NCBI GenBank assembly: GCA_965218085.1
Contig: CBDCKF010000002.1
Span: 3,336,288 to 3,400,287 of the forward strand
DNA from: Terriglobia bacterium
GTDB taxonomy: Bacteria > Acidobacteriota > Terriglobia > 20CM-2-55-15
DNA: 64,000 nt
Direction: 5' to 3'
This document shows, in pieces, positions 17,419 through 51,881 of this stretch. The notes under the pieces were generated by a model that saw only the letters and a program-made list of their open reading frames with translations, searched no databases and was not told the DNA's origin. Position 1 is the first letter of the stretch. Each line of letters begins with the position of its first letter. A program made the position numbers and the translations under genes.

Positions 17419-19170
17419 CCTGCATTTCTCAAGAGATCTAAGGTAAACGAGAGACGGAAGGAAGTGTAAAGGACCGGAAAAGGCCGCCCTGTCTGGCATA
17501 GAAGGTTGTGCGAAGAACTTTCAACACACAGACGGAGGCGGCCTTTAACATGACAGAGTGTAAAACAGAACGGGTTCAATTTCACGCTTTAGGTTCACGC
17601 GAAGTTTGCGGTCAATTCGACGGTGGGGACATCAGCTCGGACGCGGGCGGATTGCTGCTGCGGGAGGTGGAGAAACGGACCGGGATCCTGAAACAGTTTG
17701 CCGGATGTTTCCAGGATTATCGGGATCCGCGATTTGTGGAACATCGCATCGAGCCACTGGTGGCGCAACGGGTCTACGGATTGTGTTTGGGCTATGAGGA
17801 TCTGAACGATCACGATCAACTGCGTTCAGATCCAGTCCTGGCCGTGATGGTCGATGAGACCGATCCGAAGGGGCGAACTCGGAAGCAGGAGCGGGACCGG
17901 GGCAAGGCGCTGGCGGGCAAGAGCACGCTGAACCGGCTGGAGCTCTCGACCGAGGGTGCGGCCAGCCACCCGTACAAGAAGATCGGGCGGGATGAAGCGG
18001 CGATGGATCGATTGATGGTGGACGTGTTTCTCCAAGCCCATCGGCGAGCACCACGGCAAATCATCCTGGATCTGGATGCGACCGACGATCCGATTCACGG
18101 GAATCAGGAAGGCCGCTTCTTTCACGGCTACTACCGGCACTATTGTTATCTGCCGCTCTACATCTTCTGTGGGGAGTTTCTGCTCTGTGCCCGGCTGCGA
18201 TCCTCTGACATCGATGGTGCGGCTGGAACGGTGGAGGAACTGGAACGGATCGTGGGCCAGATTCGGCAGGAGTGGCCCCGAGTCCAGATTGTGATTCGGG
18301 CCGACTCGGGTTTCTGCCGCGATGAGATCCTGAGCTGGTGCGAGGCCCAGCACCGTGTCGATTACGTGATCGGACTGGCGAAGAACAAGCGGCTGCTCCG
18401 CGCGATTGAAACTCCGATGGAGAAAGCGAAGCAGCGATTCGACAGGACCGGAAAGTCGGCGCGCGTCTTTAAGACGTTTCAGTATCGGACCCTGGACAGC
18501 TGGACCCGAGAGCGACGCGTCATTGGCAAGGCCGAACATCTGGCCAAGGGAGCCAACCCGCGGTTTATCGTTACCTCGTTACCGAAAGGCCAACCCACCC
18601 CAAAGCAGATCTATGAACAGATCTACTGTGCTCGTGGGGACATGGAAAACCGGATCAAAGAGCAACAGCTCGGATTGTTTGCCGACCGGACCAGCACGGC
18701 CACCATGCGCGCCAATCAACTCCGGCTCTACTTCTCATCGGTCGCGTACATGTTGATGCAAGCCTTGCGACGGCTCGGATTGCAGGGTACCGAATTCGCG
18801 CGTGCGCAGTGCACCACGATCCGCCTCAAGTTGCTCAAGATCGGAGCGCAGATCCACGTCACCGTCCGCCGGATCTGGATTCGGATGGCCGGCGGGTATC
18901 CCTATGCCAACGTGTTTGCTCAGATCTACGCGAACCTCCAGAAAATCCCGCTACGTTGTTAAACGTCTCCGCTCGGACATCCCACCCGTTTCGACCTTGG
19001 TAGGGATTGCTGTCTCTGTAATCCGCTTTCACCTTGCCATTCTCTTCAACACCAATCACTCAGGCTCCGTTTTTCAGCTCAGCTGGCCTCTTTGCTCCCG
19101 CGACACCGCTCACGACCCCTATCCCGTCTACCCATTGCTCGTTTCGCCATCATTCTTGAGAAATGCGGGC
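17419..19170 (+). mobile_element. IS1380-family-like insertion sequence, copy 2 (~1.75 kb) inserted in an MFS gene, CTAG on both flanks
   Basis: IRL CCTGCATTTCTCAAGA (17419..) and IRR TCTTGAGAAATGCGGG (..19170) form a 16-bp inverted repeat with one mismatch. CTAG lies at 17415-17418 and 19171-19174. Confidence 0.75.
17508..18962 (+). CDS. DDE transposase (IS1380-family-like), paralog of 1833..3248
   Basis: 484 aa. Same conserved blocks (LCLGYEDLNDHDQLR, GNQEGRFFHGYY, CARGDMENRIKEQQL). Confidence 0.85.
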   Translation: MRRTFNTQTEAAFNMTECKTERVQFHALGSREVCGQFDGGDISSDAGGLLLREVEKRTGILKQFAGCFQDYRDPRFVEHRIEPLVAQRVYGLCLGYEDLNDHDQLRSDPVLAVMVDETDPKGRTRKQERDRGKALAGKSTLNRLELSTEGAASHPYKKIGRDEAAMDRLMVDVFLQAHRRAPRQIILDLDATDDPIHGNQEGRFFHGYYRHYCYLPLYIFCGEFLLCARLRSSDIDGAAGTVEELERIVGQIRQEWPRVQIVIRADSGFCRDEILSWCEAQHRVDYVIGLAKNKRLLRAIETPMEKAKQRFDRTGKSARVFKTFQYRTLDSWTRERRVIGKAEHLAKGANPRFIVTSLPKGQPTPKQIYEQIYCARGDMENRIKEQQLGLFADRTSTATMRANQLRLYFSSVAYMLMQALRRLGLQGTEFARAQCTTIRLKLLKIGAQIHVTVRRIWIRMAGGYPYANVFAQIYANLQKIPLRC

Positions 19171-20704: not shown

Positions 20705-22084
20705 TCATTCTTTTCCGGTTTCGACGGCGTACCCGTTCGATATCCAGGCATCGATTCCACCGACAACGTTTGTAACTTCGAAGCCGGAAGCCGCGAGGAG
20801 GCTCGCCGCCGCCGCCGATCTGTAACCGCTCTTGCAGATGACAGCCACCGGCAGGTGTGGGGCCAGCCCCTCCATGCCTTTGACTAAACCGTCAAGCGGC
20901 AGGTTCATTGCATCGGGAATATGTCCTTGGCTGAACTCGGTCGGGCGGCGCACGTCGAGGAGTTGAACGTTTCCGGGGTCGTCAATTCGGGCTTCAAGCT
21001 CATCGGGAGGAATCTGTTCAAGTGTCTCAATAGGGCATCCGGCTTTGTCCCACGCGTAGATCCCTCCGGAGAGGTATCCGCGGACGTTTTCAATTCCCAC
21101 TCTTGCCAGCCTGAGGACTGCCTCTTCGATTTCTTCCTTGTTGTCGGTGACGACGACGATAGGCCGATCGGAGGGGACCAAAGATCCGCACCAGGAAGCG
21201 AATTGCCCGCCGAGAGCGATGTTTATTGCTCCCGGAATATGGGCAGTGCCGAATGCGGCCCCAGATCGAACGTCCAGAAGGAAATCAGAATCCAGGTTCA
21301 GGGCCTCTGGTTCCAGTTGGGACGGCTTGGGGAGTTCGTTGAGGGGGCTCGCCCCAAGGCGGTTGAGTTCGGCGTCGCGTGGAAAGTAGGACGGTGTTTG
21401 AGGCAGTTCTGAGGTCATGATTCGAACAAACTCTTCCTGCGGCATCGATTTCAGCGCGTAATTGAAGCGCCGCTGTTCGCCTATTGTCGATGCGCGGGCC
21501 TGAGAGATGTTTCTTCCGCACATCGATCCCGCTCCGTGAGCCGGGTACACTTCCACGGAGTCGTCGAGCGCCAAGAGCTTTCCGTGAATGCTGTCGTATA
21601 ACATTTCCGCCATCTCCTCGGCCGAGTGCCCTTTGGATCCCACCAGGTCGGGACGACCGACGTCACCGATGAACAGTGTGTCTCCAGTGAGCACTTTCTG
21701 AGGCCGGGATCCAATCTCGGTGTCAATGACCAGAATCGAGATGCTTTCAGGTGTGTGTCCCGGCGTTTCAAGGAAGTGGAGCATTGTTGTGCCAAGCTTG
21801 ATGGAGTCCCCGTCGCCGACCGGTCGGAAGGGAAACGCCGCGTCGCACCTTTGCCCGAAAACGATTGTTGCTCCGGTACGAGCGGCGAGTTCGAGATGAC
21901 CGCTTACGAAATCTGCGTGGAGATGCGTTTCGATGACATATTGAATTTCGAGATCCGCCGTCCGGGCGGCTTCCAAGTAAAGTTCAACATCCCTTTGAGG
22001 GTCGATAACTGCGGCGCTCCCATCGGAGCCGATCAGGTAGGACGCGTGTGCCAGACATCCGAGGTAGAACTGCTCAAAGTACAT
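20705..22084 (-). CDS. Persulfide dioxygenase (MBL fold) fused to two rhodanese domains
   Basis: N-terminal HxHxDH metallo-beta-lactamase motif (ETHLHADFVSGH). C-terminal rhodanese with the Cys loop ICKSGYRSAAAA. Confidence 0.8.
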   Translation of the reverse strand: MYFEQFYLGCLAHASYLIGSDGSAAVIDPQRDVELYLEAARTADLEIQYVIETHLHADFVSGHLELAARTGATIVFGQRCDAAFPFRPVGDGDSIKLGTTMLHFLETPGHTPESISILVIDTEIGSRPQKVLTGDTLFIGDVGRPDLVGSKGHSAEEMAEMLYDSIHGKLLALDDSVEVYPAHGAGSMCGRNISQARASTIGEQRRFNYALKSMPQEEFVRIMTSELPQTPSYFPRDAELNRLGASPLNELPKPSQLEPEALNLDSDFLLDVRSGAAFGTAHIPGAINIALGGQFASWCGSLVPSDRPIVVVTDNKEEIEEAVLRLARVGIENVRGYLSGGIYAWDKAGCPIETLEQIPPDELEARIDDPGNVQLLDVRRPTEFSQGHIPDAMNLPLDGLVKGMEGLAPHLPVAVICKSGYRSAAAASLLAASGFEVTNVVGGIDAWISNGYAVETGKE

Positions 22085-25319: not shown

Positions 25320-26660
25320 ATGGCAATCCCGAATGCGACTGCTCCGCCTCCCCAAGGCAAGAATCTCCTGGAACAGTTTCTTTCTCTCTTCAGCGTGGTC
25401 AAGGGCGGTGAGGGCGGCAGCGCGATTCTGCTCACCCTCAATGTTTTCCTGCTCCTGGGTGCTTATTACTTCCTAAAAATCGTTCGGGATACCTTGATTA
25501 TCGACGAGTCGGGTGCGGCCGCAGCCAGCTACTCGGCGGCAGGGCAGGCATTGCTCTTGCTGCTCGTCGTGCCCGCCTATGGATTGCTGGCTTCCAAAGT
25601 GAACCGCATCCGTCTGGTGTCCTGGGCGACCTTGTTCTTTGTTTCACACCTGGTTATTTTCTTTCTCCTTGGGAGTGCGGGATATCGGATCGGCATTCCG
25701 TTCTACCTCTGGTTGGGCATTTTCAATATTTTCGTAGTGGCTCAGTTCTGGGCTTTTGCGAACGATATCTATTCCGAAGAGCAGGGTAAGCGCTTGTTTC
25801 CGATCATCGCCGTCGGTGCCTCGCTCGGTGCGTGGGTCGGTTCGACGGTGATCGAACAGACTTTCGAGACTCTGGGGGCGTACTTGCCGATGGTGATTGG
25901 AGCCGGCTTGCTGATCATCTGCGTCTTGATCACCCAATGGGTCAACCGTCGCGAAACCGTACGTGGCGGGGCCGCCGAGGCGGAAAAGGCACAACAGCCT
26001 CTGGGCAAGGAGGGCGGTTTCCAACTCGTAATGGGTAGCCGCTACCTGATGTCCATCGCCGTCTTGATTCTCTTGCTGAACGTGGTGAATAGCACCGGAG
26101 GATATCTATTGAACAGCCTGGTGGAGTCGGCGTCAGATGCTCAGGTTGCGGCAGGAACTATCGCGATTGGGGCAGAACGCCAAGCCTTTATCGGGGAGTA
26201 TCTCGCAGGCGTTTATGCCTGGGTCAACTTACTGGGCCTGTTGATCCAGATGTTTCTCGTTTCCAGAATATTCCGATTGATCGGGGTTCGCGGAGCCTTG
26301 TTCGTTCTACCGTGCATTGCCATCGGTGGCTATGGCTTGCTGATGGCATTACCGATGTTGCAGATCGTAAGGATCGTAAAGATCGCCGAGAACAGCACCG
26401 ACTATTCGCTGATGAACACCATTCGCGCCGCTCTGTATTTACCCACCAGCCGCGAAGTCAAATATAAGGCGAAGCAGGTTATAGACACTTTCTTCGTTCG
26501 TTTGGGCGATATGCTTCAGGCGGGCGTCGTCTTCGTTGGAATTCAGCTGGGATTCGGCATCCGCAACTTTGCGATAGCAAACACCATTTTCTGCCTCATG
26601 TGGCTGGTTGCAGCAGTATCAATATTCCGCGAGCACAAACGGATCACTAAAGAGTCCTGA
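25320..26660 (+). CDS. TLC/AAA-family (ATP:ADP antiporter-like) membrane carrier
   Basis: About 12 TM segments. The N-terminal motif YYFLKIVRDTLII resembles the TLC-family signature (Y..LRDTKDTLVV). Confidence 0.6.
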   Translation: MAIPNATAPPPQGKNLLEQFLSLFSVVKGGEGGSAILLTLNVFLLLGAYYFLKIVRDTLIIDESGAAAASYSAAGQALLLLLVVPAYGLLASKVNRIRLVSWATLFFVSHLVIFFLLGSAGYRIGIPFYLWLGIFNIFVVAQFWAFANDIYSEEQGKRLFPIIAVGASLGAWVGSTVIEQTFETLGAYLPMVIGAGLLIICVLITQWVNRRETVRGGAAEAEKAQQPLGKEGGFQLVMGSRYLMSIAVLILLLNVVNSTGGYLLNSLVESASDAQVAAGTIAIGAERQAFIGEYLAGVYAWVNLLGLLIQMFLVSRIFRLIGVRGALFVLPCIAIGGYGLLMALPMLQIVRIVKIAENSTDYSLMNTIRAALYLPTSREVKYKAKQVIDTFFVRLGDMLQAGVVFVGIQLGFGIRNFAIANTIFCLMWLVAAVSIFREHKRITKES

Positions 26661-29251: not shown

Positions 29252-29506
29252 ATGTCGAAGGCTGTGGAGAACCGTACGGTTGCAATTACCGAACATCGAT
29301 TCGAGAAAGAACTAATGTCGTTGATCGAGCCCCACGGCGCAAACGTTATCTCGTGTCCGTTATTAGAAGAGCGACCCGTTGAGAACCGCTCTGAGTTGCG
29401 AGCCTTCATCAGCCGTGGAATCGTCGAGCGGATTCTGCTTGCGTCGCCGAAGATGGCTCCACTCGCAGACGCGATAGCGGCCGATTTCGAACGGGCAGAC
29501 AGATGA
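29252..29506 (+). CDS. Uroporphyrinogen-III synthase (HemD)-like N-terminal fragment, 84 aa
   Basis: VAITEHRFEKELMSLIEPHGANVISCPLLEERPVE resembles the HemD N-terminus (VTRP...L...G..V...PLIEI.P). Its stop overlaps the cysG start (ATGA). Confidence 0.35.
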   Translation: MSKAVENRTVAITEHRFEKELMSLIEPHGANVISCPLLEERPVENRSELRAFISRGIVERILLASPKMAPLADAIAADFERADR

Positions 29507-30933
29507 AGTACTTCCCGATTTCACTGAGTGTAAAAGACCGGCGCGTGACGGTGATCGGCGGCGGCCATGTTGCCGAGGAACGGGTTCAGGCCCTCCTGGA
29601 GTGTAATGCGCGTGTGAGGGTAATCAGCCCTGAAGTGACGGAAACCCTTGAATCCCTCTCCGCTGCCGGCAAGATAGAATTGCATTTGCGCACCTATGAG
29701 TCTGGAGATCTCGCCGGCTCATGGGCGGTGCTGACAGCAACCGATGATCCAAGTGTCAACGAAGCCGCCTGGGGTGAATCGCGTGAGGGGAGAATCCCCA
29801 TCAATGTTACCGACGACCCGTCAAAATGCGATTTCATCATGCCCGCGCTTCTGCGGCGTGGAGATTTGACGATAGCGATTTCAACCGGGGGGGCGAGTCC
29901 GGCTTTAGCGGCCCGATTACGGCGACGCCTGTCGGCGATCGTGGGACCTGAATACGGGCGGCTTCTTGAGGTGCTGGGCAGGGTTCGATCACGCTTGAAA
30001 GACTCTGTGGCTGATGCTGACGAACGCAGGCGATTGCACTACCGGATTGTGGATTCGAACATCCTGCACCAGATCCTTGAATTGGACGTCGAGACCGTCG
30101 AATCCCGCATTGACTCAATCATCCGGGATGCGTCGACGGGTGTATCTCAGGCTTTAGGGTACGTGTATATCGTTGGCGCGGGACCCGGGGACCCCGGCCT
30201 GATCACATCACGTGGGCTGGACGCGCTTCGCATGGCTGATGTGGTCTTGCACGATCGCCTTATTGATATACGCCTGCTGGAGGAAGCACGTCCGGGAGCC
30301 GAGGTAATCGATGTCGGAAAGCGCGTGGGGGACCGCTCCCGAATGCAGGACTTTATTCAAGAAACATTGGTTGATCGGGCAAAGCGTGGCCAGACGGTCT
30401 GCCGCCTGAAAGGGGGCGATCCTTTCGTGTTCGGGCGGGGCGGTGAAGAAGCCCGCGCGCTGACGGAAGCGGACATTCCATTCGAAATCATTCCCGGCGT
30501 AACCAGCGCAATCGCTGCACCGGCGTCCGCCGGAATACCGGTCACCCACCGTGACACCGCCCATTCGTTCATGGTAATGACAGGTTCGCGAGCCGACGAC
30601 GCGAGTCCGGATGAGTGGGCCGGAGCCAGGAGTGTGATTGCCGGAGGCGGCACTGTCGTGGTGCTGATGGGCCTGTCGCGATTGACTGGCATCATTCGTC
30701 GGTTGAGCAAGGCCGGCTGTGGAGGGGAGACACCGGCCGCCGTGATATCCCGGGGAACATGGATTGAACAGGATGTTCGTGTAGGGACTTTGGAGAACAT
30801 TGAATCTCTATCGAAGGGAATCGTATCGCCCGCAGTAATCGTATTCGGAGTGACTGTCGGAGAGAGGGACCGGCTTGCCCAGATCCGTGCGGCGATGGCG
30901 GGGAAAAAGAATGAGCGTGATGGAACCTGCTAG
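29503..30933 (+). CDS. cysG: Siroheme synthase (precorrin-2 dehydrogenase/ferrochelatase + uroporphyrinogen-III C-methyltransferase)
   Basis: N-terminal VIGGGHVAEERV Rossmann fold. C-terminal VYIVGAGPGDPGLIT...GGDPFVFGRGGEE methyltransferase motifs. Confidence 0.9.
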   Translation: MKYFPISLSVKDRRVTVIGGGHVAEERVQALLECNARVRVISPEVTETLESLSAAGKIELHLRTYESGDLAGSWAVLTATDDPSVNEAAWGESREGRIPINVTDDPSKCDFIMPALLRRGDLTIAISTGGASPALAARLRRRLSAIVGPEYGRLLEVLGRVRSRLKDSVADADERRRLHYRIVDSNILHQILELDVETVESRIDSIIRDASTGVSQALGYVYIVGAGPGDPGLITSRGLDALRMADVVLHDRLIDIRLLEEARPGAEVIDVGKRVGDRSRMQDFIQETLVDRAKRGQTVCRLKGGDPFVFGRGGEEARALTEADIPFEIIPGVTSAIAAPASAGIPVTHRDTAHSFMVMTGSRADDASPDEWAGARSVIAGGGTVVVLMGLSRLTGIIRRLSKAGCGGETPAAVISRGTWIEQDVRVGTLENIESLSKGIVSPAVIVFGVTVGERDRLAQIRAAMAGKKNERDGTC

Positions 30934-31206
30934 TGGCCTGTAACACCCGAATCGGGAGCAGCGTTCGGGCCAAACGGCGTTGGATTTTAGGAGTCGGCAA
31001 CGAGAAAATGGCCCTACATTGCGAGGCGGCGACGACAACGAGGACAATGCCGTTTCGCCCGAACCCTTTGGGCCGATGGGGGTTGCCGACGATATCTTTG
31101 TTGCGAGCCGTCGTCGATGTGAAGACATCGACTTCCGTCTCGCGCCTCGATCTCCCCGGCAAGACCCATCGGCGCTGCTCCCGATTCGGGTGGTACAGGT
31201 CACTAG
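30932..31206 (+). repeat. Structured MITE-like repeat, copy C (its CTAG overlaps the cysG stop TAG)
   Basis: 34-bp terminal inverted repeat CTAGTGGCCTGTAACACCCGAATCGGGAGCAGCG / complement. Nested internal stems. Confidence 0.8.
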
Positions 31207-31482
31207 TGTGTGCGGCGAGACATTTGCGAGATAGGATTTCGCTCGGTCGTTCATTCAGACGTCCTGTCTGAACGACCGGCGAGCCTCGCCATCATCATGA
31301 CGGCGAGGTCTATTGGGAAAGACGAAATATTGGATTGTGGCCTTGAAGGACTCGCACCGGTCCGATGGTGCGGGTGAACGGCTTACAGAATAAAGAGGCG
31401 GAGCCGAGGCGTTTAGAGTAATAAAGAAGATCCGATCAGTTCGGAACGAAACTGTTAAGCACCGAACTGCCAATGCGGGATA

Positions 31483-31764
31483 TTAGATCCGTCCTCCGGA
31501 AATAGCAGGGATAATCGAGACTTCCGCTCCAGCCGGAACCTTGGTCTGTAAATCATCCAGGAAGCGCACGTCTTCTCCATCGACGTAAACATTGAAGAAG
31601 CGCCGCAACTCCCCGTTATCCTCACAGAGCCGGGATTTCAGGCCCGGATACTTCTGGTCCAACTCATTCAGGATCTCTGAAATAGTGTCGGCCTGGACGT
31701 CAATTTCGGCGTCTTCTGCAGTGAATCGCCGAAGAGGTGTAGGAATGGTGACTCGAGTCGTCAT
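31483..31764 (-). CDS. MoaD/ThiS-family sulfur-carrier-like protein ending ...SGGRI
   Basis: 93 aa ubiquitin-like fold pattern with C-terminal AEVSIIPAISGG followed by two extra residues (RI). Confidence 0.7.
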   Translation of the reverse strand: MTTRVTIPTPLRRFTAEDAEIDVQADTISEILNELDQKYPGLKSRLCEDNGELRRFFNVYVDGEDVRFLDDLQTKVPAGAEVSIIPAISGGRI

Positions 31765-31802
31765 CGAATGCCTCCGATATGGGTAGTACAGGTCACGGGC
31801 TG

Positions 31803-33041
31803 CTACGCAGTCATGCTGAGTTCGTTCACAGCGGCGTCGAATTCTCCCAGCTTGGCTTCAATTGTTTTGGGGGCTTGAAGGTTCAGCGCATCCTGTGTCT
31901 TTAAGCCGTTTCCAGTATTCGCAATAACGGTGAGGTCTTGCCGCTTGATCTTGCCTTGAGCCACGAGTTTTCGTGTGACGCCCAAAGCGACACCACCGGC
32001 AGTTTCGGCGTAGATGCCTTCCATTTCCGCCAGCAGCTGGATGTTTTCGACAATCTCTCGGTCGGTAACATCTTCGCCCCATCCGCCGGATTCCGTGATG
32101 ACTTCCACTGCATAGTACCCGTCGGCTGGCGATCCAATGGCTAGTGACTTGGCAATGGTCGATGGCTTGACGGGCCGAATATTGCGGGTGCCGTTCTTGA
32201 CTGCTGCCGTGATGGGATTGCAACCCGTCGCTTGAGCGCCGAAGATCTTCGTCCGAACGGGTTCATCGAGCAATCCGAGGCTTTCCAACTCTTTCATTCC
32301 GAGTTGCGTTTTCGTGATCAAGGATCCGCCGGCCATGGGTATAACGATTGCGTCCGGTGCACGCCACCCAAGTTGCTCGGCAATTTCGTATCCGAAAGAT
32401 TTCGATCCATCGCCGTAATAGGGGCGTAGGTTGACGTTGACGAATCCCCAGCCGTACCGGTCCGCGATCTGGCTGCACAGGCGGTTGACGTCGTCGTAGT
32501 TGCCGCGAACGGAAATAACGTGAGAACCGTAGACGGAAGTCGCGTTGACCTTTGCCGCTTCCAGGTTATCCGGAATCAATATCCAAGCCGGCAGTCCAGC
32601 TGCAGCCGCATTGGCGGCGACGGAATTTGCCAGGTTCCCCGTGGAGGCACACCCGACGGCCTGGAGACCAAACTCGAGGGCCTTGTTGATTGCGACAGCA
32701 GTTACGCGGTCTTTGAACGAAAGTGTCGGGAAGTTAACACTGTCATTCTTGACATAAAGCTCATCAATGCCGATAGCGCGGCCTAGGCGTTCTGCTCGAA
32801 CCAGAGGCGTGCCTCCTGTATCCAGTCCGATCTGGGGGTCATCGTCGATCGGGAGGAGTTCGCGATAACGCCAGATAGAGTTATTGCGCGAGCGGATGAC
32901 ATCACGAGTGAGCACCTTGGCGATAGCCTCGTAGTCGTATTCGACCTTGAGAGGGGCGAAGCATTCCTGACAACCGGCAATCGGGCGTTTCGGGTATTTA
33001 CGGCCGCATTCACGGCAGCTTAACCCTGTAACAAAACTCAT
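31803..33041 (-). CDS. thrC: Threonine-synthase-family PLP enzyme with N-terminal Cys4 zinc ribbon
   Basis: CRECG...CQEC ribbon. PLP-lysine motif SFKDR. Start set at MSFVTG, which has a GGAGGAGAG RBS. The ORF track extends further to 33119. Confidence 0.8.
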   Translation of the reverse strand: MSFVTGLSCRECGRKYPKRPIAGCQECFAPLKVEYDYEAIAKVLTRDVIRSRNNSIWRYRELLPIDDDPQIGLDTGGTPLVRAERLGRAIGIDELYVKNDSVNFPTLSFKDRVTAVAINKALEFGLQAVGCASTGNLANSVAANAAAAGLPAWILIPDNLEAAKVNATSVYGSHVISVRGNYDDVNRLCSQIADRYGWGFVNVNLRPYYGDGSKSFGYEIAEQLGWRAPDAIVIPMAGGSLITKTQLGMKELESLGLLDEPVRTKIFGAQATGCNPITAAVKNGTRNIRPVKPSTIAKSLAIGSPADGYYAVEVITESGGWGEDVTDREIVENIQLLAEMEGIYAETAGGVALGVTRKLVAQGKIKRQDLTVIANTGNGLKTQDALNLQAPKTIEAKLGEFDAAVNELSMTA

Positions 33042-33317
33042 GTTTTTCTCTCCTCGATCCGGCGCGACATTGGGTTGGCCCAAAAGAAAGGGTTGACCCA
33101 AAAAAGAACCCCGCGCCATACAGCGCGGGGTTCTTCCTGAAATCCTCCGGACTGTTTAGCACATCTTTTACGTGGAGCAATTTGTCTTAAATCGCCACGC
33201 TGCCCATACTACAAAAACCCTACGCCAAACGGGCGCAGGGCTTTGTGGGACACCTGAGCTGTTTAGCACATCTTTAACGTGGAGCAATTTGCGTAAATCA
33301 CCACGCTTAAAACCAGC
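33042..33317 (-). promoter_or_regulatory. Approx. 276-nt structured leader of the thrC-like operon (tandem ~52-nt repeats plus terminator); candidate attenuator/riboswitch
   Basis: Lies between the predicted TSS and the ATG. Two direct repeats (+33151-33200 and 33256-33305), each containing a CGUGG/CCACG stem. It ends in an intrinsic terminator. Confidence 0.5.
33100..33133 (-). terminator. Intrinsic terminator/attenuator hairpin GAACCCCGCGC-loop-GCGCGGGGTTC followed by a T-run, 59 nt upstream of the thrC-like ATG
   Basis: Perfect 11-bp GC-rich stem. TTTTTT follows on the transcribed strand. Confidence 0.7.
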
Positions 33318-33323
33318 CCAAAA

Positions 33324-33352
33324 ATCATAGCGCGGGGCATCTGCCGCGTCAA
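33324..33352 (-). promoter_or_regulatory. Sigma70-like promoter TTGACG-17-TATGAT driving the thrC-like leader
   Basis: On the minus strand, TTGACG and TATGAT lie 17 nt apart, directly downstream of the histidine kinase stop codon. Confidence 0.6.
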
Positions 33353-37196: not shown

Positions 37197-38477
37197 TTAA
37201 GCCACCTTTGACGGATCGTCGCCAGTGACCAGGTCGTTGAGTTTGGCCTGGAGCATCCAGAGATCCTTATATCCCAGAATTCTGCGGAAGTTTTTCTCGG
37301 TATCGAGGAAGGAGGCCGCCGCCCATCGCAGGGCCATGTCGGCATTCTTCCATCGGCCCACACGACGGGTCCGGATACGCATCCCGGAGTGCGAACTGTC
37401 GATGAGGTTCGTCGACCCCAGACAACGGCGAAGAGCCGGAGACAGTTCGAGACGGTTGATGGTGAACATTTCGTCGAGTCCTTCCTTGAGACTGGCCGCA
37501 GCATCCGGATGCTGAGACCGCAACCATTCGGCTTGCTTTCGGATCCGGGCGATGCCTTCCTTCCACGGCAAGCGGAACGCGGCTTTCATGACGGAAACGA
37601 CCTGCGGAGCCAATTCGTCGGGGAGCTTCGCCGCGACGTTCCGGATCTTGTGGTTGCGGCATCGCTGGACCGGATTCTGACGGCCAAAGACCTTGTCGAT
37701 CGCGCTCCGCAGCGCTTTTGCGCCGTCAATGACGAACAGGTACCGCCGACCTGGATCGATGCCCCGGTCGACGAGATCCTCCAGCAGCGTGACCGCCGTG
37801 GCCGCGTTCTCGCTCGCGCCGTCCTTTATTCCCAGGACGACCTTCTCGCCGCTGGAATCCACGCCCACGGCGCAAAGCACGTGAAATTCTCCGAAGATCA
37901 CGCCGTCCAGATAGATCACCAGGAACTCCCGGTCCTCGAACCGGCGTTCGCTCAGCCGCTTCAACTCCTTCCCGCTCTGCTCAACGAATTCCCGGCTCAC
38001 CGACGACTTGCTGACACCGACCGTGTCGGCCATCTGGGGAATGACCCGTTCGTATTGCCGGGTCGAGACGTTCGACATCAGGATCTCCAGAACCCGGCTG
38101 CCGATCGTCCCGTTCGCGTTGATCGCCTCGTAGGCCGGGATCTCGACCTCCTGGCCTTTACCCCGCCCCTTCTTCCGAAGTCGGGGCTTTCGGACTCGCA
38201 GCTTGCGATCCGACAGCCGCACGCTGCCAGCCTGCCTGCCGTGCCAACGAATCGACTCCTTCGCCCGGCCCCGCTGCTTCTCTCCGGCCACACCCTGCGC
38301 CGACAACTGCAACACGGCCTCGATACTGGCACGTCCCAACACGTCGATCAACTCGTCGATCGCCATCCGCGACCCTTCGATCAGCTCGACCATCGGCAGC
38401 AGAATCTGCCCGTTCTCTGTCAAATATTCCGCCAACGACTGGCTGTCGTCGCGGCTCACGATTCGGTATGCTTTCAT
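37197..38477 (-). CDS. IS256-family (mutator-type) transposase
   Basis: Conserved blocks VIYLDGVIFG, CAVGVDSSGEKVVLG, LFVIDGAKALRSAI and QRCRNHKIRNV. Confidence 0.85.
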   Translation of the reverse strand: MKAYRIVSRDDSQSLAEYLTENGQILLPMVELIEGSRMAIDELIDVLGRASIEAVLQLSAQGVAGEKQRGRAKESIRWHGRQAGSVRLSDRKLRVRKPRLRKKGRGKGQEVEIPAYEAINANGTIGSRVLEILMSNVSTRQYERVIPQMADTVGVSKSSVSREFVEQSGKELKRLSERRFEDREFLVIYLDGVIFGEFHVLCAVGVDSSGEKVVLGIKDGASENAATAVTLLEDLVDRGIDPGRRYLFVIDGAKALRSAIDKVFGRQNPVQRCRNHKIRNVAAKLPDELAPQVVSVMKAAFRLPWKEGIARIRKQAEWLRSQHPDAAASLKEGLDEMFTINRLELSPALRRCLGSTNLIDSSHSGMRIRTRRVGRWKNADMALRWAAASFLDTEKNFRRILGYKDLWMLQAKLNDLVTGDDPSKVA

Positions 38478-38622: not shown

Positions 38623-41382
38623 ATGTTTGATCACATTCGAACTGTTCTGAAGCTTCGCCCTTCCGAAGGCCGCATAACATCACTGATGTTTCTCTACGTT
38701 CTGGGCATTCTCACTTTCCACTACATTTTAAAGCCACTCCGGGCGCGGTTTTTTCTCCAGGCGTTTCCTGCAAGCGACCTGCCCTACGCATACATCCTGA
38801 CAGCTTTGTTCGCTGGGCTGGTCGCGACGCTCGTATTCCGACTGGGTCAACGCGTGTCTTTGGTTTCACTCATTACGATAACGAATGGCGGAATTGTCGG
38901 GACACTCTTCGTCTTTCGGGCAGTTATAGACGGTGAATTGGTATTCCTCCCTTACGCCTACTACGTCTACGTGCAGACGGTATCGGGTGTGGCCATGGCA
39001 CAGTTCTGGCTACTGGCCGCCCGTGTCTACGATTCACGGCAGGCCAAACGTACCTACAGCCTCTTAGGGGCCGGCGCAATCACGGGTGCGGTTGTCGGCA
39101 GTGTGATACCCGGATTTCTGTCAGACCGTTTGTCTGTGGAATCGATGTTTACCGTGTGTATCGGAATCATGATCGCATTGACAGGTCTGGCCCATACCGT
39201 CTGGCGGTCTCGCAGGAAGGTTGCCATAAGTGTTGCCCGGCAAAGGGAGCGTGACACTGAACTTGACCGGTTTCGTGGGCTTTGCCGGATGGTGTCGACC
39301 TCGGGTCATTTACGCTTGATAGGTCTGTTGATCCTCTTAACCGTAATTGGGTCGCAGTTGGCGGAATGGCAGCTCAGCCAGGCGGTCCAGAGTTTCTACG
39401 GAAATTTGGGGAGAATCGAACAGGGAACGCGGATCAACGAGTTCTTCGGCCGCTTTTACCTGGTGACAAATGTTGTCGGCATGCTGCTGCAGGTCGTCGT
39501 CACCGGATTCCTCGTCCGGCGGTTTGGCATCCTGGCCGCCTCGCTTTTTCTTCCGGTCGCGCTCCTGGCGGGCGGACTGGGCGTCCTCATCGCACCCGGC
39601 CTTGCTGCCGCCACGTTCACACGCGGCAGCGATGCGGCGTTTCGGTATTCGACTAGCCGAACCAGTCTGGAACTGCTCTACCTGCCCTTGTCTCCCGTAG
39701 TCCGGGAGCGCTTGAAGGTGTTCGTCGACGTGTTCGTCGATCGAGTCGGGCGTGCAGTGGCCGGGATCCTGATCCTTTTGTTGACTAGCTCGGTGCTTCC
39801 GTTCGGACTCAGAGGAACGGCTTTCGTGATGGTCGTAGTGACCGTAGCCAGTATATTTGTTGCTGTACGTGTGCGTCGAACATACGTGGAAGAGTTTCGT
39901 CACCAACTGGAACGTAGTGAAGTGGACTTGTCGGAGATGGCGAACTCCGTTACGGATCCGGCGTCGGTTCAAATGTTGGTGGATACTTTGGGGAGCTCAG
40001 AGCAACGCCGTGTCGCTTACGCTTTGAAGCTTCTCCAGTCGAGTAAAGGTGTTGATTTCCATGTCGAACTCATTCCACTGCTCAAACATCCCTCTTCGCG
40101 CATAAGAATGGAAGCAGTGCGCACGCTCCCGGCCTTGTCGCAGGATTTCGAGAGCGAAGCTAAGCGATTGCTGCTTGACGAAGACGATGGTGTGCGTGAG
40201 GCCGCACTGGATTATCTGCTGAGGTATTCGAGTCCCGACTCGGCAGGGACGCTTGAAGCGATGCTGCATCACGAGGACGCAGCGATACAGACACTGGCCG
40301 CTTTTTGGGCGTTCGAGCACGCTCCCATGGAATTTCGCGCCCCACGTGAAGTTGTCGATGGCTTGCTGGCGATGGATGGAATTCGATCTCGCTCAGCAGG
40401 GATTCGGTTGGCATCGCGGTTGGAAACATCCGAAGCCAACAGGATTCTCGAACGGCTGCTGATGGAATCAGACGGTGAACTGACGGGGGTCGCGGCGGGT
40501 GCGGCGGCGCGGATCGGCGCAATCCCATTGGTGACGCGGATCATTGAATTGCTTGCCGAAGCTCGGTCGCGCAAACACGCCAAGCAAGCGCTGGTTCGGT
40601 ACGGCCGAGCTATTGCACCCCAGTTGGGTGAGGTACTCAGCAACGAGACTGGAAACCTGCTCATACGGCGAGAACTTCCGTGGGTGCTGGCACGCATTGG
40701 CGGTAGCGAAGCTGCCGAAGCTCTTCTGAGGAACCTCGGAGTCGAGGATCGAATGTTACGCTATCGCGTGGTGAAGGGTCTAAATCATCTTCATCGCTTC
40801 GAGCCGAATCTGCCATCGCCAAGTTCACTGATTGCGGCGCAAATCTTTCGTGAAACTCAAAACTATTATGAAGCTCTGCTCTTGTCGCGAACACTTGGCG
40901 AAAAGACGAGCTTGTTGGGTCGTGCAATCGACGAACGCCTGGATAGAGATATGGAGCTGATCTTCTGTTTGATCGGGCTCCAGTACCCGCAGAAGGATAT
41001 CTATTTCGCCTATAGCGCCATCCGTGGCGATCACGTTGGCCGGCGAACGGCTGCCCTGGAGTTCATAGACAACGTTTTGAAAGCCGACCTTAAATCTATT
41101 ATTCTCCCGCTCTTAGAAGACGAACCGACGGATCATATTATTGATCAGGCCGCGCGACGTTACGCTATTCGTATCGGAGATATTCAAGACGCCCTGAACA
41201 GGGTGTTGGAGCAGTCCGACAGCTGGTTGACAGCGTGTGCCCTTTACGAAATCGGTGTGCGGAATATTGATGAAATGATCGAGAGTTGCCGTCGTTTGAC
41301 CCGTCACAACGACTCGATTGTGCGAGAATCGGCTTACTGGGCGCTGGGACGGCTCGAAGTCAAAGCTGAAGGTCTCGGGTGA
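38623..41382 (+). CDS. TLC/AAA-family carrier fused to a C-terminal HEAT-repeat domain (919 aa)
   Basis: The N-terminal ~440 aa form a polytopic membrane domain with a TLC-like start (HYILKPLRARFFLQ). The C-terminal half has repeated HEAT-like helices (VRTLPAL, VREAALDYLL, IRLASRL). Confidence 0.7.
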   Translation: MFDHIRTVLKLRPSEGRITSLMFLYVLGILTFHYILKPLRARFFLQAFPASDLPYAYILTALFAGLVATLVFRLGQRVSLVSLITITNGGIVGTLFVFRAVIDGELVFLPYAYYVYVQTVSGVAMAQFWLLAARVYDSRQAKRTYSLLGAGAITGAVVGSVIPGFLSDRLSVESMFTVCIGIMIALTGLAHTVWRSRRKVAISVARQRERDTELDRFRGLCRMVSTSGHLRLIGLLILLTVIGSQLAEWQLSQAVQSFYGNLGRIEQGTRINEFFGRFYLVTNVVGMLLQVVVTGFLVRRFGILAASLFLPVALLAGGLGVLIAPGLAAATFTRGSDAAFRYSTSRTSLELLYLPLSPVVRERLKVFVDVFVDRVGRAVAGILILLLTSSVLPFGLRGTAFVMVVVTVASIFVAVRVRRTYVEEFRHQLERSEVDLSEMANSVTDPASVQMLVDTLGSSEQRRVAYALKLLQSSKGVDFHVELIPLLKHPSSRIRMEAVRTLPALSQDFESEAKRLLLDEDDGVREAALDYLLRYSSPDSAGTLEAMLHHEDAAIQTLAAFWAFEHAPMEFRAPREVVDGLLAMDGIRSRSAGIRLASRLETSEANRILERLLMESDGELTGVAAGAAARIGAIPLVTRIIELLAEARSRKHAKQALVRYGRAIAPQLGEVLSNETGNLLIRRELPWVLARIGGSEAAEALLRNLGVEDRMLRYRVVKGLNHLHRFEPNLPSPSSLIAAQIFRETQNYYEALLLSRTLGEKTSLLGRAIDERLDRDMELIFCLIGLQYPQKDIYFAYSAIRGDHVGRRTAALEFIDNVLKADLKSIILPLLEDEPTDHIIDQAARRYAIRIGDIQDALNRVLEQSDSWLTACALYEIGVRNIDEMIESCRRLTRHNDSIVRESAYWALGRLEVKAEGLG

Positions 41383-47933: not shown

Positions 47934-50075
47934 CTACGCCTTCGTGTAGGTGTTTTGTGCCTGTTCGAGGAAGAGCGCGGCTTCCTCGATCCGACGCCTG
48001 GCATCATCGGCGGTGAATTCGGCGCCGATTTCCTGAGTGGTTCTGAAGAAATTTTCAGCGAAGGGCTTGTGGAAGCGACCGGTTTCATAGAATCTCTTTC
48101 GGAACTCAGCGACGCAGTCGTAGTTATCCGACAACAGCAGGCCTTCTGTCGACAGCAGCGCGTCCGCAGCTTTCCTTGTCGCGTTCATCGCCCCCTCGGC
48201 TGCTTCCTGGTAGCGTTCACCATCCAGTGCCAATGTGGCCTCGAAAACGAGTCGATCGGCTTCTTCGAGCATGAATTCCGCTTGATCTACCATCGCTCCC
48301 GCACATTCGCCAACGCCCGTTTCTTTGTGGTACTCCCATGATTGCCGGTTATCGATGTAAAGTTCGGGTGCCGACTCGTAAGTCTGAAGCGTGAGCTCTT
48401 CTATTTCCGATTTCAAACGTGCTTTGCCCAGCCGCCCGACGAAGCGGGAAAAGGTCTCTCCCTCCTGTTTCTCCGCAGTATAGAGAGCGGTCAAGCGTTC
48501 GACGACGCGGGGCGCGTTCCGCGCGGGGACCTTGGCTGTGACGAGTCCGTACGAGTCTGCATTGTGGTCGGTTGTACCGCCGAGAACGACCTGAAAGACC
48601 GGGGCTGTGAAGGCGCCTTTGCGCTGAACCGAACCCAGAAATCCGATATCGGCAATATGGTGCTGACCGCAAGAGTTGAAACACCCGCTGATCTTGATCT
48701 TGATATCCTCCCGATGGGAGGTCTCTTCCATGCCGTTGTTGAATTTTTCATCGAAGACCGCGGCCAGGCCTCGGGATGAGGTTATGCCGAGCTTGCAGGA
48801 ATCGGTGCCGGGGCAGGCCGTGATATCGGCGAGCCGGGCCGATCCAGTGCGATTCAGGCCGATTCGTTTAAGGTCCGCGTACAAAGCCGGCAGGTCGGCA
48901 TTCGAGACCCAGCGGAGAAGAAGGTTCTGTGTCACTGTCGTCCGAACCGTATCGCTGATGTAGTTTTGGCAGACCCTGGCCAGTTCCCTCAGTTGGTCCG
49001 CTGTGATATCCCCCAGAGGAAGAAATACTTCGACCATCGAGTAACCATCCTGGGCCTGCGGGCGGACGTTCGTGTCGAACCAAGTCTTAAGCTCAGGAGT
49101 CGTCAACAGGCCGGGGGTCAGCGTAGATCCCGGTTTCAGCGGCTGTTCGATTCGGGTGGCAGCCGTAGCGATCGCGGTTTCCCACTCCGCGTCTACGGGC
49201 AGCTTTTCACGTTCTTCCTCAACCAGCCGGCGGAACTCGTCGATCCCGAGTATGTTCACCAGGAACTTCATGCGTGCCCTGTTCCGGTCATCTTTTTCAC
49301 CGAGGCGCGCAAACACCCGGGACATTGCCTGCGCCAGCGGCAGCATCTGATCCGCAGGAATGAAGTCGCTATAGAGTTTCGCCTGGTGGGGAATTGCGCC
49401 GAGGCCACCACCGACATAAACCTTAAATCCGTGAATCTTCTTACGGCCTTCTTCGCGGATCGTTGCCACTGCGCCGATGTCATGCATCTTTGCCAGACCG
49501 CACGGTTTATCTGCGCATCCGGAGTAAGCAATCTTGAACTTACGTCCAAAATTCTGTGCGTCGGGGTGGCGTAGAAGGAAAGCTGCCATTGCGAGGGCGT
49601 GGGACGTCGGATCGAATTCTTCACTCGAGCACACACCCGCTTCCGGGCATCCGGTAACGTTACGGACAACATTGCCGCAGGCTTCGCGCGTTGTGATTCC
49701 CACCTCAGCCAATCGCCGCATCATGTTGGGTGTGTCGTCGATGTCCACGAAGTGGTACTGGATGTCCTGACGTGTTGTGATGTGGCTAATTCCGTCGGCA
49801 TATTCCTCGGACAAATCAGCCAATCGGATCATCTGTTCGGCGGTGAGCATTCCGAGCGGTATCTTGATCCGCTGCATCTGGACGCCTTCCTGACGCTGCC
49901 CGTAGACACCGTGCCGCAGTCGGAACTCAAGAAAAACCTTTTCCGACATTTGCCCGGTCTGGACGCGCTTGAGTTGAGTCTCGAAGACATCGATTTCGTC
50001 TCGGATGTCTTCGGGAAGATGTGCCCATCGATTTTTTGGATTCGGGATTTCGGCTGGGATCTCGGTTGTCGCCAT
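47934..50075 (-). CDS. cysI: Sulfite/nitrite reductase hemoprotein (siroheme + 4Fe-4S) with C-terminal extension
   Basis: Two NIR_SIR ferredoxin-like half-domains and Cys cluster motifs (TGCPEAGVC, CPGTDSCKLG). 713 aa. Confidence 0.8.
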   Translation of the reverse strand: MATTEIPAEIPNPKNRWAHLPEDIRDEIDVFETQLKRVQTGQMSEKVFLEFRLRHGVYGQRQEGVQMQRIKIPLGMLTAEQMIRLADLSEEYADGISHITTRQDIQYHFVDIDDTPNMMRRLAEVGITTREACGNVVRNVTGCPEAGVCSSEEFDPTSHALAMAAFLLRHPDAQNFGRKFKIAYSGCADKPCGLAKMHDIGAVATIREEGRKKIHGFKVYVGGGLGAIPHQAKLYSDFIPADQMLPLAQAMSRVFARLGEKDDRNRARMKFLVNILGIDEFRRLVEEEREKLPVDAEWETAIATAATRIEQPLKPGSTLTPGLLTTPELKTWFDTNVRPQAQDGYSMVEVFLPLGDITADQLRELARVCQNYISDTVRTTVTQNLLLRWVSNADLPALYADLKRIGLNRTGSARLADITACPGTDSCKLGITSSRGLAAVFDEKFNNGMEETSHREDIKIKISGCFNSCGQHHIADIGFLGSVQRKGAFTAPVFQVVLGGTTDHNADSYGLVTAKVPARNAPRVVERLTALYTAEKQEGETFSRFVGRLGKARLKSEIEELTLQTYESAPELYIDNRQSWEYHKETGVGECAGAMVDQAEFMLEEADRLVFEATLALDGERYQEAAEGAMNATRKAADALLSTEGLLLSDNYDCVAEFRKRFYETGRFHKPFAENFFRTTQEIGAEFTADDARRRIEEAALFLEQAQNTYTKA

Positions 50076-50379
50076 GGTCGGCTGCTCCGTTTGTTTACGA
50101 TTTGGCGGTCTATTCTATACTAAATTAATCCAGTTTATCCAAAAACACCCCGTCCAAGCCTCCGATCGAGGGAGGTGGATAGCTTCGGAACGCCCGATAG
50201 TGATCCTTAAAATACTGATAAATAAGAGTATTACCTATCTGGTTCAGGCGAGCTCCCGGGATGATTGTATTCTTGACTAACATAATAAAGTAACTATAAA
50301 ATCAAAGGTCGATCGTGAGACTCCGTGAGCCTTATTAGGGTGTCTTACTCTTTCAGATTGCGACCGAGGATCACACAGT

Positions 50380-51150
50380 TTGGATTTCAATATTCTACTA
50401 CCGGTTGCGGGATTCGCAGTCGGCGTTATTGTGGGGATGACCGGTGTGGGTGGTGGGGCGCTCATGACGCCTGCCTTGATCTTCGGATTGGGGATCACGC
50501 CTGTCGTCGCCGTAGGCACGGATTTGATGTTTGCGGGCATGACCAAATCGATCGGGGTTTACGCACATCGAGTCGCGGGAAACATCGACTGGACTGCCAT
50601 GCGCCTGCTTGCCTGTGGAAGCATCCCTGCGACGATCGGCTCGATAATAATTCTGAAACGTATTTCATCGCTCGAGGTCTTGAACGCTGCAGTCTTACCG
50701 ATTCTTGGGGGTGCCCTGTTGCTGACCGCCCTGGTTGTTGTTTCGCGAGGCCGGATCGCGGCCGTTGCCGTGCGACTATCGGGGCGTTCAAGTCCTGTCG
50801 GGCCCGCTTGGATCATTTTTTCAGGTGCGACGCTGGGGTGCCTTGTAACCCTGTCCTCTGTCGGTGCCGGTGCACTGGGAGTGGCGGTGCTCATGATCTG
50901 CCGGCCGTCAATGCAGTCGAAGCAAATTGTCGGGACGAATCTGGCACACGCCTTACCTCTGGCACTGATCGCTGGCGCTGGACACTGGACTTTAGGAACG
51001 GTCGATTTTGGACTTCTGGTTGCGTTACTGATTGGGTCTATCCCCGGAATCTATCTGGGGAGTTCATTGACGGGCCGGGTTCCGGAATCCATCTTACGAG
51101 CCCTGCTGGCCACGGTCCTTGTGGCTGCCGGTTTGATGTGCATTCTCTGA
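50380..51150 (+). CDS. TauE/SafE-family (sulfite exporter-like) membrane protein
   Basis: Duplicated 4-TM repeats with G-rich motifs (GMTGVGGGALMTPALI, LSSVGAGALGVAVLM). TTG start. Confidence 0.75.
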   Translation: MDFNILLPVAGFAVGVIVGMTGVGGGALMTPALIFGLGITPVVAVGTDLMFAGMTKSIGVYAHRVAGNIDWTAMRLLACGSIPATIGSIIILKRISSLEVLNAAVLPILGGALLLTALVVVSRGRIAAVAVRLSGRSSPVGPAWIIFSGATLGCLVTLSSVGAGALGVAVLMICRPSMQSKQIVGTNLAHALPLALIAGAGHWTLGTVDFGLLVALLIGSIPGIYLGSSLTGRVPESILRALLATVLVAAGLMCIL

Positions 51151-51167
51151 GATGTGCATTCTCTGAC

Positions 51168-51881
51168 ATGATGAAAAATCCAGGTGTTTCCAAAGGCGTG
51201 ATTTCCCGGCTGACGGGGGCTGCTGCGACCGTTCTTGGCGAGATTGTGGAGTCGTCATCACCCGCCGGGTTTGCGTCCAGTTTCGGCGCCGAAGACATGG
51301 TGCTTCTCGATCTGATTGCCAGCCACGCACGTCAGATAGAGGTTTTCACGCTCGACACAGGCAGGCTTCCCGAAGAGACCTACAGGCTGATGTCCAGGAC
51401 GCGGAAGCGTTATCGGGTTCCCATCCGTGTCTATTGTCCCGAAACCGCTGCCTTGGAAACCTATGTCGAGAGGAACGGACCGGACGCTTTCTATCAGAGT
51501 ATCGCGCAGAGGCGTGAGTGCTGCCACATTCGGAAGGTGGAGCCTTTGGGGCGGGCGCTGGAAGGGAAGAAGTCGTGGGTGACGGGGCTGAGGCGAGATC
51601 AGTCGCCGACGCGTGAAAACCTCGACGTCAAAGTTTGGGACGATAGCAATGGCCTGTACAAGTTCAACCCTCTTCTGGAATGGAGTGTGGACGAGATTTG
51701 GACGTATATCCACGAGAACGAGGTCCCCTATAACAGTCTCCATGATGCCGGTTATCCCAGCATCGGCTGTGCCCCATGCACGCGTGCGGTTGAACCGGGT
51801 GCAGACATCCGTTCCGGTCGCTGGTGGTGGGAGAGTGCTGATTCCAAGGAATGCGGCCTGCACGCGGCCAAGTCATATTGA
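51168..51881 (+). CDS. cysH: Phosphoadenosine phosphosulfate (PAPS/APS) reductase
   Basis: [14 protein letters not shown]-motif and C-terminal ECGLH. 237 aa. The ORF track merges it into a longer upstream ORF. Confidence 0.85.

Follow-up and report, generated by a model that had tools for sequence, protein, structure and literature searches.

A probable MetM/MetO-type homocysteine synthase operon behind tandem SAM-II-like elements in an acidobacterium

In Streptomyces albulus, a homologue of threonine synthase (ThrC) named MetM acts with a sulfur-carrier protein, Mec and MoeZ to convert O-phosphohomoserine to homocysteine (Hasebe et al. 2024, Appl Environ Microbiol 90:e01247-24, as related in 10.1101/2024.10.14.618325), and the system is now part of GapMind 2026. 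In that account MetO is the carrier, Mec the hydrolase that matures it, MoeZ the sulfur ligase, and MetM is ‘often misannotated’ as threonine synthase. The S. albulus metM gene has an upstream S-adenosylmethionine (SAM) riboswitch, and homologues occur in cyanobacteria, according to a further study (PMC12172450). Here we describe two adjacent genes of a Terriglobia bacterium (Acidobacteriota), found in a stretch of 64,000 nucleotides that we analyzed as a whole and call the window (assembly GCA_965218085.1, contig CBDCKF010000002.1, positions 3,336,288 to 3,400,287). They encode a ThrC-family pyridoxal 5'-phosphate (PLP) enzyme and a CysO-type carrier, and very probably form a MetM/MetO-type homocysteine synthase operon that serves methionine biosynthesis and is switched off by SAM. 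A first-pass annotation of the window had called a ThrC-family partner for such a carrier less usual, yet the pairing of a ThrC homologue with a carrier was already characterized as MetM/MetO, with homocysteine as the product.

The present locus shares with the S. albulus system the combination of a ThrC-homologous PLP enzyme and a CysO-like carrier with a Gly-Gly motif, an upstream SAM riboswitch (putative and SAM-II-like here), and a genome that encodes the required Mec-type JAMM protease, MoeZ-type E1 activating enzyme and homoserine kinase ThrB. Its enzyme also groups with SAM-I-controlled actinobacterial genes instead of canonical ThrC. It differs in phylum, the nearest relatives here being Acidobacteriota, in having two SAM-II-like units with a terminator each where a single SAM riboswitch is described for S. 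albulus, and in an E1 with an N-terminal rhodanese domain. The carrier here ends in an Arg-Ile cap that varies among relatives, and the two carriers are likened by description, not by sequence. The CysO/CysM/Mec/MoeZ system of Mycobacterium tuberculosis (PDB 3DWG) works alike: the thiocarboxylate of a ubiquitin-like carrier, which a JAMM hydrolase processes, attacks an intermediate that is bound to PLP and stems from an O-phospho amino acid. There, however, a CysK/CysM-family enzyme works at the beta carbon of O-phosphoserine, whereas the partner here belongs to the ThrC family and would act on an ester of homoserine at its gamma carbon, and the protease and E1 genes here are not clustered with the pair. 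A protein thiocarboxylate is also said to supply the sulfur of homocysteine in Wolinella succinogenes, where the HcyS/HcyD/HcyF/MetY system that Krishnamoorthy and Begley reportedly described in 2011 has a carrier whose C-terminal extension is removed by a metalloprotease. Its MetY is reportedly an O-acetylhomoserine sulfhydrylase of fold type I that uses O-acetylhomoserine; in contrast, the ThrC homologue considered here is of fold type II, and the genome yielded neither MetX nor MetA. The locus is most likely a well-supported MetM/MetO member in a different phylum and under a different riboswitch class, with a tandem SAM-II architecture that is already known.

The features of the locus are listed in Table 1. 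The first-pass annotation had placed a MoaD-like gene 38 nt downstream of a ThrC-like gene with a zinc ribbon and had read the carrier's end as AISGG followed by RI. Both readings agree with our results: the spacer measures exactly 38 nt and contains a GGAGG ribosome-binding site that precedes the carrier's ATG by 6 nt, and the carrier ends in ...IIPAISGG-RI. A sequence scan of the spacer found no terminator between the two genes. Because the spacer is short and free of terminators and the gene order is kept in relatives, the two genes are probably co-transcribed. The open reading frames flanking metO at 31255-31473 (minus strand) and 30933-31271 (plus strand) have no family match and were not counted in the operon. 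The zinc-ribbon motif of the enzyme (P0001) is C9-x2-C12-x11-C24-x2-C27, in which, across 28 homologues reaching down to 41% identity, C12 is at least 90% conserved and the other three cysteines never vary. Its PLP-lysine motif is S108-F-K110-D-R, with S108, K110, D111 and R112 invariant in the same number of homologues. Pfam assigns the enzyme to PALP (219.6 bits) and the carrier (P0002) to ThiS. The enzyme falls below the cut-off of PRK08197 (291 versus 303), and CysK/CysM-family models match it weakly, so it is not a member of that family. The top homologues are very numerous and all about 412 amino acids (aa) long; a named homologue with 71% identity and the nearest Atlas clusters point to Acidobacteriota.

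Table 1. Features of the metM-metO locus and sulfur-related genes of the window
Feature	Position in window	Strand	Description
Sigma-70-like promoter	33324..33352	minus	TTGACG-17 nt-TATGAT; 10/12 consensus matches; just upstream of aptamer 1
SAM-II-like aptamer 1	33242..33314	minus	RF00521, 28.3 bits, E 1.3e-4
Intrinsic terminator 1	33213..33240	minus	CCCUGCGCC-cguuu-GGCGUAGGG then U5; 9-bp stem, immediately 3' of aptamer 1; read from sequence
SAM-II-like aptamer 2	33135..33208	minus	RF00521, 27.0 bits, E 2.9e-4
Intrinsic terminator 2	33100..33133	minus	GAACCCCGCGC-uguaug-GCGCGGGGUUC then U6; 11-bp G+C-rich stem
Ribosome-binding site of metM-like gene	33048-33055	minus	GAGGAGAG
metM-like gene (P0001)	31803..33041	minus	412 aa, ThrC-family PLP enzyme, N-terminal zinc ribbon
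metO-like gene (P0002)	31483..31764	minus	93 aa, CysO-type sulfur-carrier protein, C-terminus GG-RI
Weak terminator-like hairpin	31431..31445	minus	~38 nt past metO stop codon; 5-bp stem and T-rich tail; consensus match only
Metallo-beta-lactamase (MBL)-rhodanese fusion	20705-22084		
cysG	29503-30933		
Sulfite reductase	47934-50075		
3'-Phosphoadenosine 5'-phosphosulfate (PAPS)-reductase-like/cysD/cysN	50325-54108		

Each of the 19 loci inspected in relatives has the carrier gene directly downstream of the enzyme gene. In 17 of the 18 complete ones the intergenic gap ranges from -11 to +38 nt, and in the remaining one it is 316 nt. The solved structures closest to the carrier are the CysO-type carriers 4n6e_B (BexX-associated) and M. 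tuberculosis CysO 3dwg_C, the latter aligning with it from end to end (E 1.2e-16). G90 and G91 are invariant among the carriers, seven of which end at the Gly-Gly while eleven have one to four further residues, with RI, RF, RP, VA, FA, AERP, C, LR, RN and SRS as the observed caps. So labile a cap fits a removable extension. Adenylation requires a free Gly-Gly carboxylate in the ThiS/MoaD/CysO family, and by analogy MetO would need one as well. Four ThiS-family genes are present in the genome, namely a MoaD-MoaE fusion, a ThiS-ThiG fusion, the metO-like gene and a second CysO-like carrier gene ending in GG-C. Since the separate fusions cover the needs for MoaD and ThiS, the metO-like gene is not mere molybdopterin or thiamine machinery. 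That possibility had been raised in the first-pass annotation and failed when tested against these fusions and the similarity of the carrier to CysO-type proteins.

Two further observations concern carriers. The second CysO-like carrier (P0122; 92 aa) is encoded outside the window directly after a Mec-like JAMM gene (G000:C2:2175443-2176138; L016:~7440-8145). It is 39% identical to MetO and has no adjoining PLP enzyme, the next gene being that of the GTPase Der. In the closest relative, a member of the same genus (G004; L024:1224-1466), the MetO orthologue loses similarity past residue 81, is 101 aa long and has no Gly-Gly end, which suggests a frameshift or faulty assembly.

Upstream of the enzyme gene, the leader contains in order a promoter, aptamer 1, terminator 1, aptamer 2, terminator 2, a ribosome-binding site and the ATG. 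Read from its sequence, this leader is a series of two complete, putative transcription-terminating switches. The promoter is the sole promoter-like site between 31200 and 33500, although shuffled sequences average 1.4 such sites and it is hence weak evidence when taken alone. The two aptamers are the best two SAM-II matches in the whole 6.4-Mb genome, and the core of aptamer 1 is identical, or nearly so, to those of orthologous leaders (L028 and L030) that score 37.0 and 36.2 bits. When 16 loci of relatives were searched, 14 had a SAM-II-like element upstream of the orthologue and on the strand of the gene; two of these leaders (37.0 and 36.2 bits) exceed the Rfam gathering score and six loci are tandem. 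Across 21 aligned aptamer copies there is a near-invariant core, CGUGG-Y-GAUUU...UUGCUCCACGU-AAA-AU-UGCUAAACAG, and 95.6% of alignment cells pair in a proposed P1 hairpin and two-part pseudoknot (P1/P2a/P2b). Only one pair displays a real compensatory change (GC in ten copies, AU in five), most pairs being invariant. Tandem SAM-II riboswitches have been described in 44 examples, some of which have a terminator after each aptamer in a ‘pseudo-cooperative’ arrangement (Sherlock et al. 2022, PMC9481103). The present leader likewise has two aptamers in series, each with its own intrinsic terminator. It departs from those examples in that the copies in the window score below the gathering score and their binding of SAM is putative, and in preceding a metM-metO operon in an acidobacterium. 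Among other RNA matches, a third SAM-II match elsewhere in the genome (20.8 bits) is weak and was treated as chance. Thr_leader, Leu_leader, F6 and several small RNA models match at 33100-33157 because the stem of terminator 2 lies there; they recognize nothing more specific than a terminator hairpin and were rejected.

Methionine and SAM genes are the classical targets of SAM riboswitches. In all 20 actinobacterial members of the enzyme's clade that were tested, a SAM-I riboswitch (RF00162) lies immediately upstream on the same strand, scoring 56-87 bits against a gathering score of 44.4. Two SAM riboswitch classes on orthologous genes in two phyla argue that the clade serves methionine and not threonine synthesis, and this is our strongest comparative argument.

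The genome (6.36 Mb, 97% complete) encodes three ThrC-family genes. Homologues in 41 related genomes form two identity groups, orthologues of at least 54% identity in about 33 genomes and paralogues of at most 42%. A representative with 55% identity is a gene of a Micromonosporaceae bacterium, and with it as the query we collected the best 80 named actinobacterial loci. No Streptomyces locus was among these best 80 genome matches, and the plasmid collection yielded only Nonomuraea. Five actinobacterial genomes hold both a clade gene and a second, shorter ThrC of 35-38% identity, which is located directly after hom in all four cases checked, as in a canonical threonine operon. In a maximum-likelihood tree of 72 sequences, a clade of 55 rows with 100/99 support unites P0001 with 12 carrier-linked acidobacterial orthologues, 14 actinobacterial genes and 28 metagenomic representatives. 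Outside it are the five shorter actinobacterial ThrCs (four of them confirmed as hom-linked), Escherichia coli ThrC and one of the organism's own paralogues (L021, the gene after lon), which groups with canonical ThrC. The phylogeny thus bears out the suspicion of the first-pass annotation that this is not a canonical threonine synthase, and it goes against the tight clustering with verified threonine synthases that would have refuted that view: the 100/99 branch separates P0001 from the ThrC of threonine operons (hom-thrC, thrABC) and from L021.

The third own paralogue (L020) occupies yet another tree group that is neither canonical ThrC nor the MetM clade. It lies outside the window (G000:C2:1360386-1361504; L020:7366-8601, minus strand), encodes 411 aa and exceeds the PRK08197 cut-off with 558 bits. 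It is flanked by genes for a DASS-family anion symporter and a SorA-like sulfite dehydrogenase. This setting is a hint of a beta/gamma-replacement enzyme related to sulfite or sulfonates, cysteate synthase being one example of the type.

The accessory proteins expected of such a system are encoded elsewhere in the genome, where the first-pass annotation had suggested looking for a JAMM protease and an E1-like gene. There are two Prok-JAB (JAMM) proteins (83-85 bits), one of which adjoins the second carrier, and a 387-aa rhodanese-ThiF E1 that exceeds the cut-off of the MoeB model PRK08762 with 542.6 bits. A second ThiF protein has no rhodanese domain. ThrB is encoded next to asd (263 bits versus a cut-off of 168). 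Neither MetX nor MetA was detected in the 97%-complete genome, and in the organism's family MetX was seen in one of 24 genomes (a weak, interrupted match) and MetA in two. More distantly related genomes with strong MetX matches number four, and three of these have no MetM orthologue. Three CysK/M genes are present elsewhere in the genome. As an additional observation on the rhodanese-ThiF E1 (G000:C1:1178856-1179560; L018:6791-7954, minus strand), its rhodanese domain spans residues 20-113 and its ThiF domain residues 132-366; the usual MoeZ has the reverse domain order.

From these data we infer the substrate, the product, removal of the cap, the protease and E1 that act, and binding of SAM. 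By analogy with the known systems, P0001 is predicted to be an O-phosphohomoserine-dependent, MetO-thiocarboxylate-dependent homocysteine synthase. ThrB would supply O-phospho-L-homoserine, and the Arg-Ile cap would be cut from MetO, probably by one of the two JAMM/Mec-like proteases. The exposed Gly-Gly carboxylate (Gly91) could then be adenylated and converted to a thiocarboxylate by the rhodanese-ThiF E1. MetM would bind O-phosphohomoserine on PLP and eliminate phosphate as threonine synthase does, but add the thiocarboxylate sulfur of the carrier at the gamma carbon in place of water. Homocysteine may be freed after an acyl shift and hydrolysis, as in the CysO/CysM/Mec system. A transcript from the promoter (33352-33324) would pass both SAM-II-type switches, so that high SAM could abort it twice and give a steeper response. 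The first-pass annotation had proposed a thiocarboxylate-dependent amino-acid synthase in preference to a canonical threonine synthase, and the separate clade, the CysO-like carrier and the presence of both JAMM and E1 proteins support that view.

We modeled the complex of MetM (28-row alignment) with MetO residues 1-91 (20-row alignment) together with three controls. The interaction prediction score from aligned errors (ipSAE) was 0.66 (0.66, 0.66 and 0.63) for the pair versus 0.00 for the best control. The pair thus passes its controls. Among solved complexes 58 of 80 reach that mark, and among mismatched pairs two of 110 do; these counts are rough since we used our own alignments. At least 88% of contacts are common to the model runs, and the predicted local distance difference test (pLDDT) of the partner is at least 82. 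In the model, the tail of the carrier (residues 83 and 85-90) touches MetM residues 183-206 and 287-309, including the invariant N202 and R206, while the loop of MetO residues 54-58 packs on the zinc ribbon at MetM residues 22-30 around C24/C27. The predicted structure supports binding between MetM and MetO. A joint reading, which we offer tentatively and consider rather doubtful as a whole, has three parts. The conserved zinc ribbon of MetM-clade enzymes would be the site where the carrier docks, and the short, variable caps would form a post-transcriptional maturation checkpoint through a distant JAMM protease. Combined with the double SAM-II switch and the lack of MetX and MetA, this would leave the operon as the sole and tightly gated sulfur entry into methionine in this acidobacterial family.

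Several results weigh against the assignment to MetM/MetO. Both aptamers in the window score below the Rfam gathering score (28.3 and 27.0 versus 36), and the near-invariance of the aptamer core leaves thin covariation support. In NCBIfam the enzyme passes the general thrC model TIGR00260 (265.2 bits against a cut-off of 167.1), although MetM and ThrC are evidently not told apart by it. Placement of the clade is tied to the characterized S. albulus MetM only by proxy, through the SAM-riboswitch-controlled actinobacterial clade at 50-55% identity. Among the best 80 actinobacterial loci, no MetO-like gene lies within 2.5 kb of 78 clade genes, the carrier being adjacent only in L121 (Nocardioidaceae) and L122, so most Actinobacteria must either provide the carrier in trans or feed the enzyme from another sulfur donor. 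Two family relatives that have no operon also have neither MetX nor MetA, and the three cystathionine-synthase/lyase-family (Cys/Met-PLP) proteins in the genome, none of which reaches an equivalog cut-off, could by their family provide another, plant-like route from O-phosphohomoserine. In view of these proteins and the two operon-free family members, we do not claim the operon as the only route. The structural model may have passed partly through its likeness to the solved CysM-CysO complex, albeit with a different enzyme family. Finally, a homologue from Microcystis that shares about 52% identity with MetM and likewise has a MetO-like gene beside it was found to act as a threonine synthase/deaminase in vitro; that study reports no rise in methionine and no SAM riboswitch, and its authors doubted a full MetM role (PMC12172450).

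The last of these results would fit a bifunctional or moonlighting enzyme that keeps threonine synthase or deaminase activity and inserts sulfur as a side reaction or from free sulfide, while MetO has another role, for example as a ubiquitin-like modifier or a carrier for some other product. SAMP1, the best NCBIfam match of P0002 (moaD_arch also matches), is itself a ubiquitin-like modifier. We nevertheless consider this explanation improbable, as control would be by SAM and not by threonine or isoleucine, a MetX- or MetA-dependent alternative route to homocysteine was not found in the genome, coupling to the carrier is tight and conserved, and the modeled carrier tail sits at the enzyme. The Microcystis gene, which has no SAM riboswitch (PMC12172450), may have diverged in role. 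An ordinary threonine synthase with a molybdopterin- or thiamine-related neighbor that is adjacent by chance would agree with the TIGR00260 match, with threonine synthases being the closest solved structures to P0001, and with the label ‘threonine synthase’ that databases give to its relatives. It would leave unexplained the branch apart from hom-linked ThrC, the grouping of another own paralogue with canonical ThrC, SAM riboswitches instead of threonine-related control in two phyla, adjacency in 19 of 19 loci, and a CysO-like carrier in a genome with its own MoaD-MoaE and ThiS-ThiG fusions. That explanation is largely refuted, and we give it very little weight. The same small weight goes to a thiocarboxylate-dependent synthase for a different product, such as cysteine from O-phosphoserine, a thio-cofactor or a natural product. 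The resemblance of the carrier to CysO 3dwg_C and to BexX-associated 4n6e_B and the presence of cysteine and sulfate-assimilation genes in the window would fit such an enzyme, but the partner is of the ThrC family and not CysK/CysM, with three CysK/M genes elsewhere. In addition, SAM riboswitches point to methionine and SAM genes, the second carrier beside a Mec-like JAMM protein is a better candidate for a cysteine route, and no biosynthetic-cluster genes were found around the pair.

If the MetM/MetO assignment holds, it has consequences for annotation. Pipelines that call the metM-like gene ‘threonine synthase’ make methionine synthesis in Acidobacteriota look incomplete and ThrC look triplicated. 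A MetM/MetO identity would fill the methionine gap and bring into a major soil phylum a pathway that has to date been demonstrated in Streptomyces alone, and a SAM riboswitch combined with a CysO-like neighbor would serve as a simple marker of the family. The locus is also a compact natural case of what appear to be two complete SAM-II switches in series, and the modeled complex suggests how a ThrC-fold enzyme could recognize a protein sulfur donor.

The first-pass annotation had further described the window as rich in sulfur-transfer genes. Sulfur-assimilation genes are indeed present (Table 1), but their association with the pair is loose, since they lie 1.5-17 kb away with unrelated genes and insertion sequence (IS) elements in between. 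Within the sulfate-assimilation group, the gene at 50325-51881 (plus strand) encodes a 518-aa protein with a PAPS-reductase domain at residues 317-488 and an N-terminal part of about 300 residues that has no Pfam match; it is followed by cysD-like (51851-52789) and cysN-like (52786-54108) genes. Two transposase genes, at 17508-18962 (plus strand; DDE_Tnp_1_4) and 37197-38477 (minus strand; Mutator family), separate the metM-metO operon from the sulfate-assimilation genes, the first of them lying between pieces of a major facilitator superfamily gene. Weak matches to the TLC (ATP/ADP transporter) family, which are unusual for a free-living soil bacterium, occur at 25320-26660 and 38623-41382 (both plus strand), and one of the two is fused to HEAT repeats.

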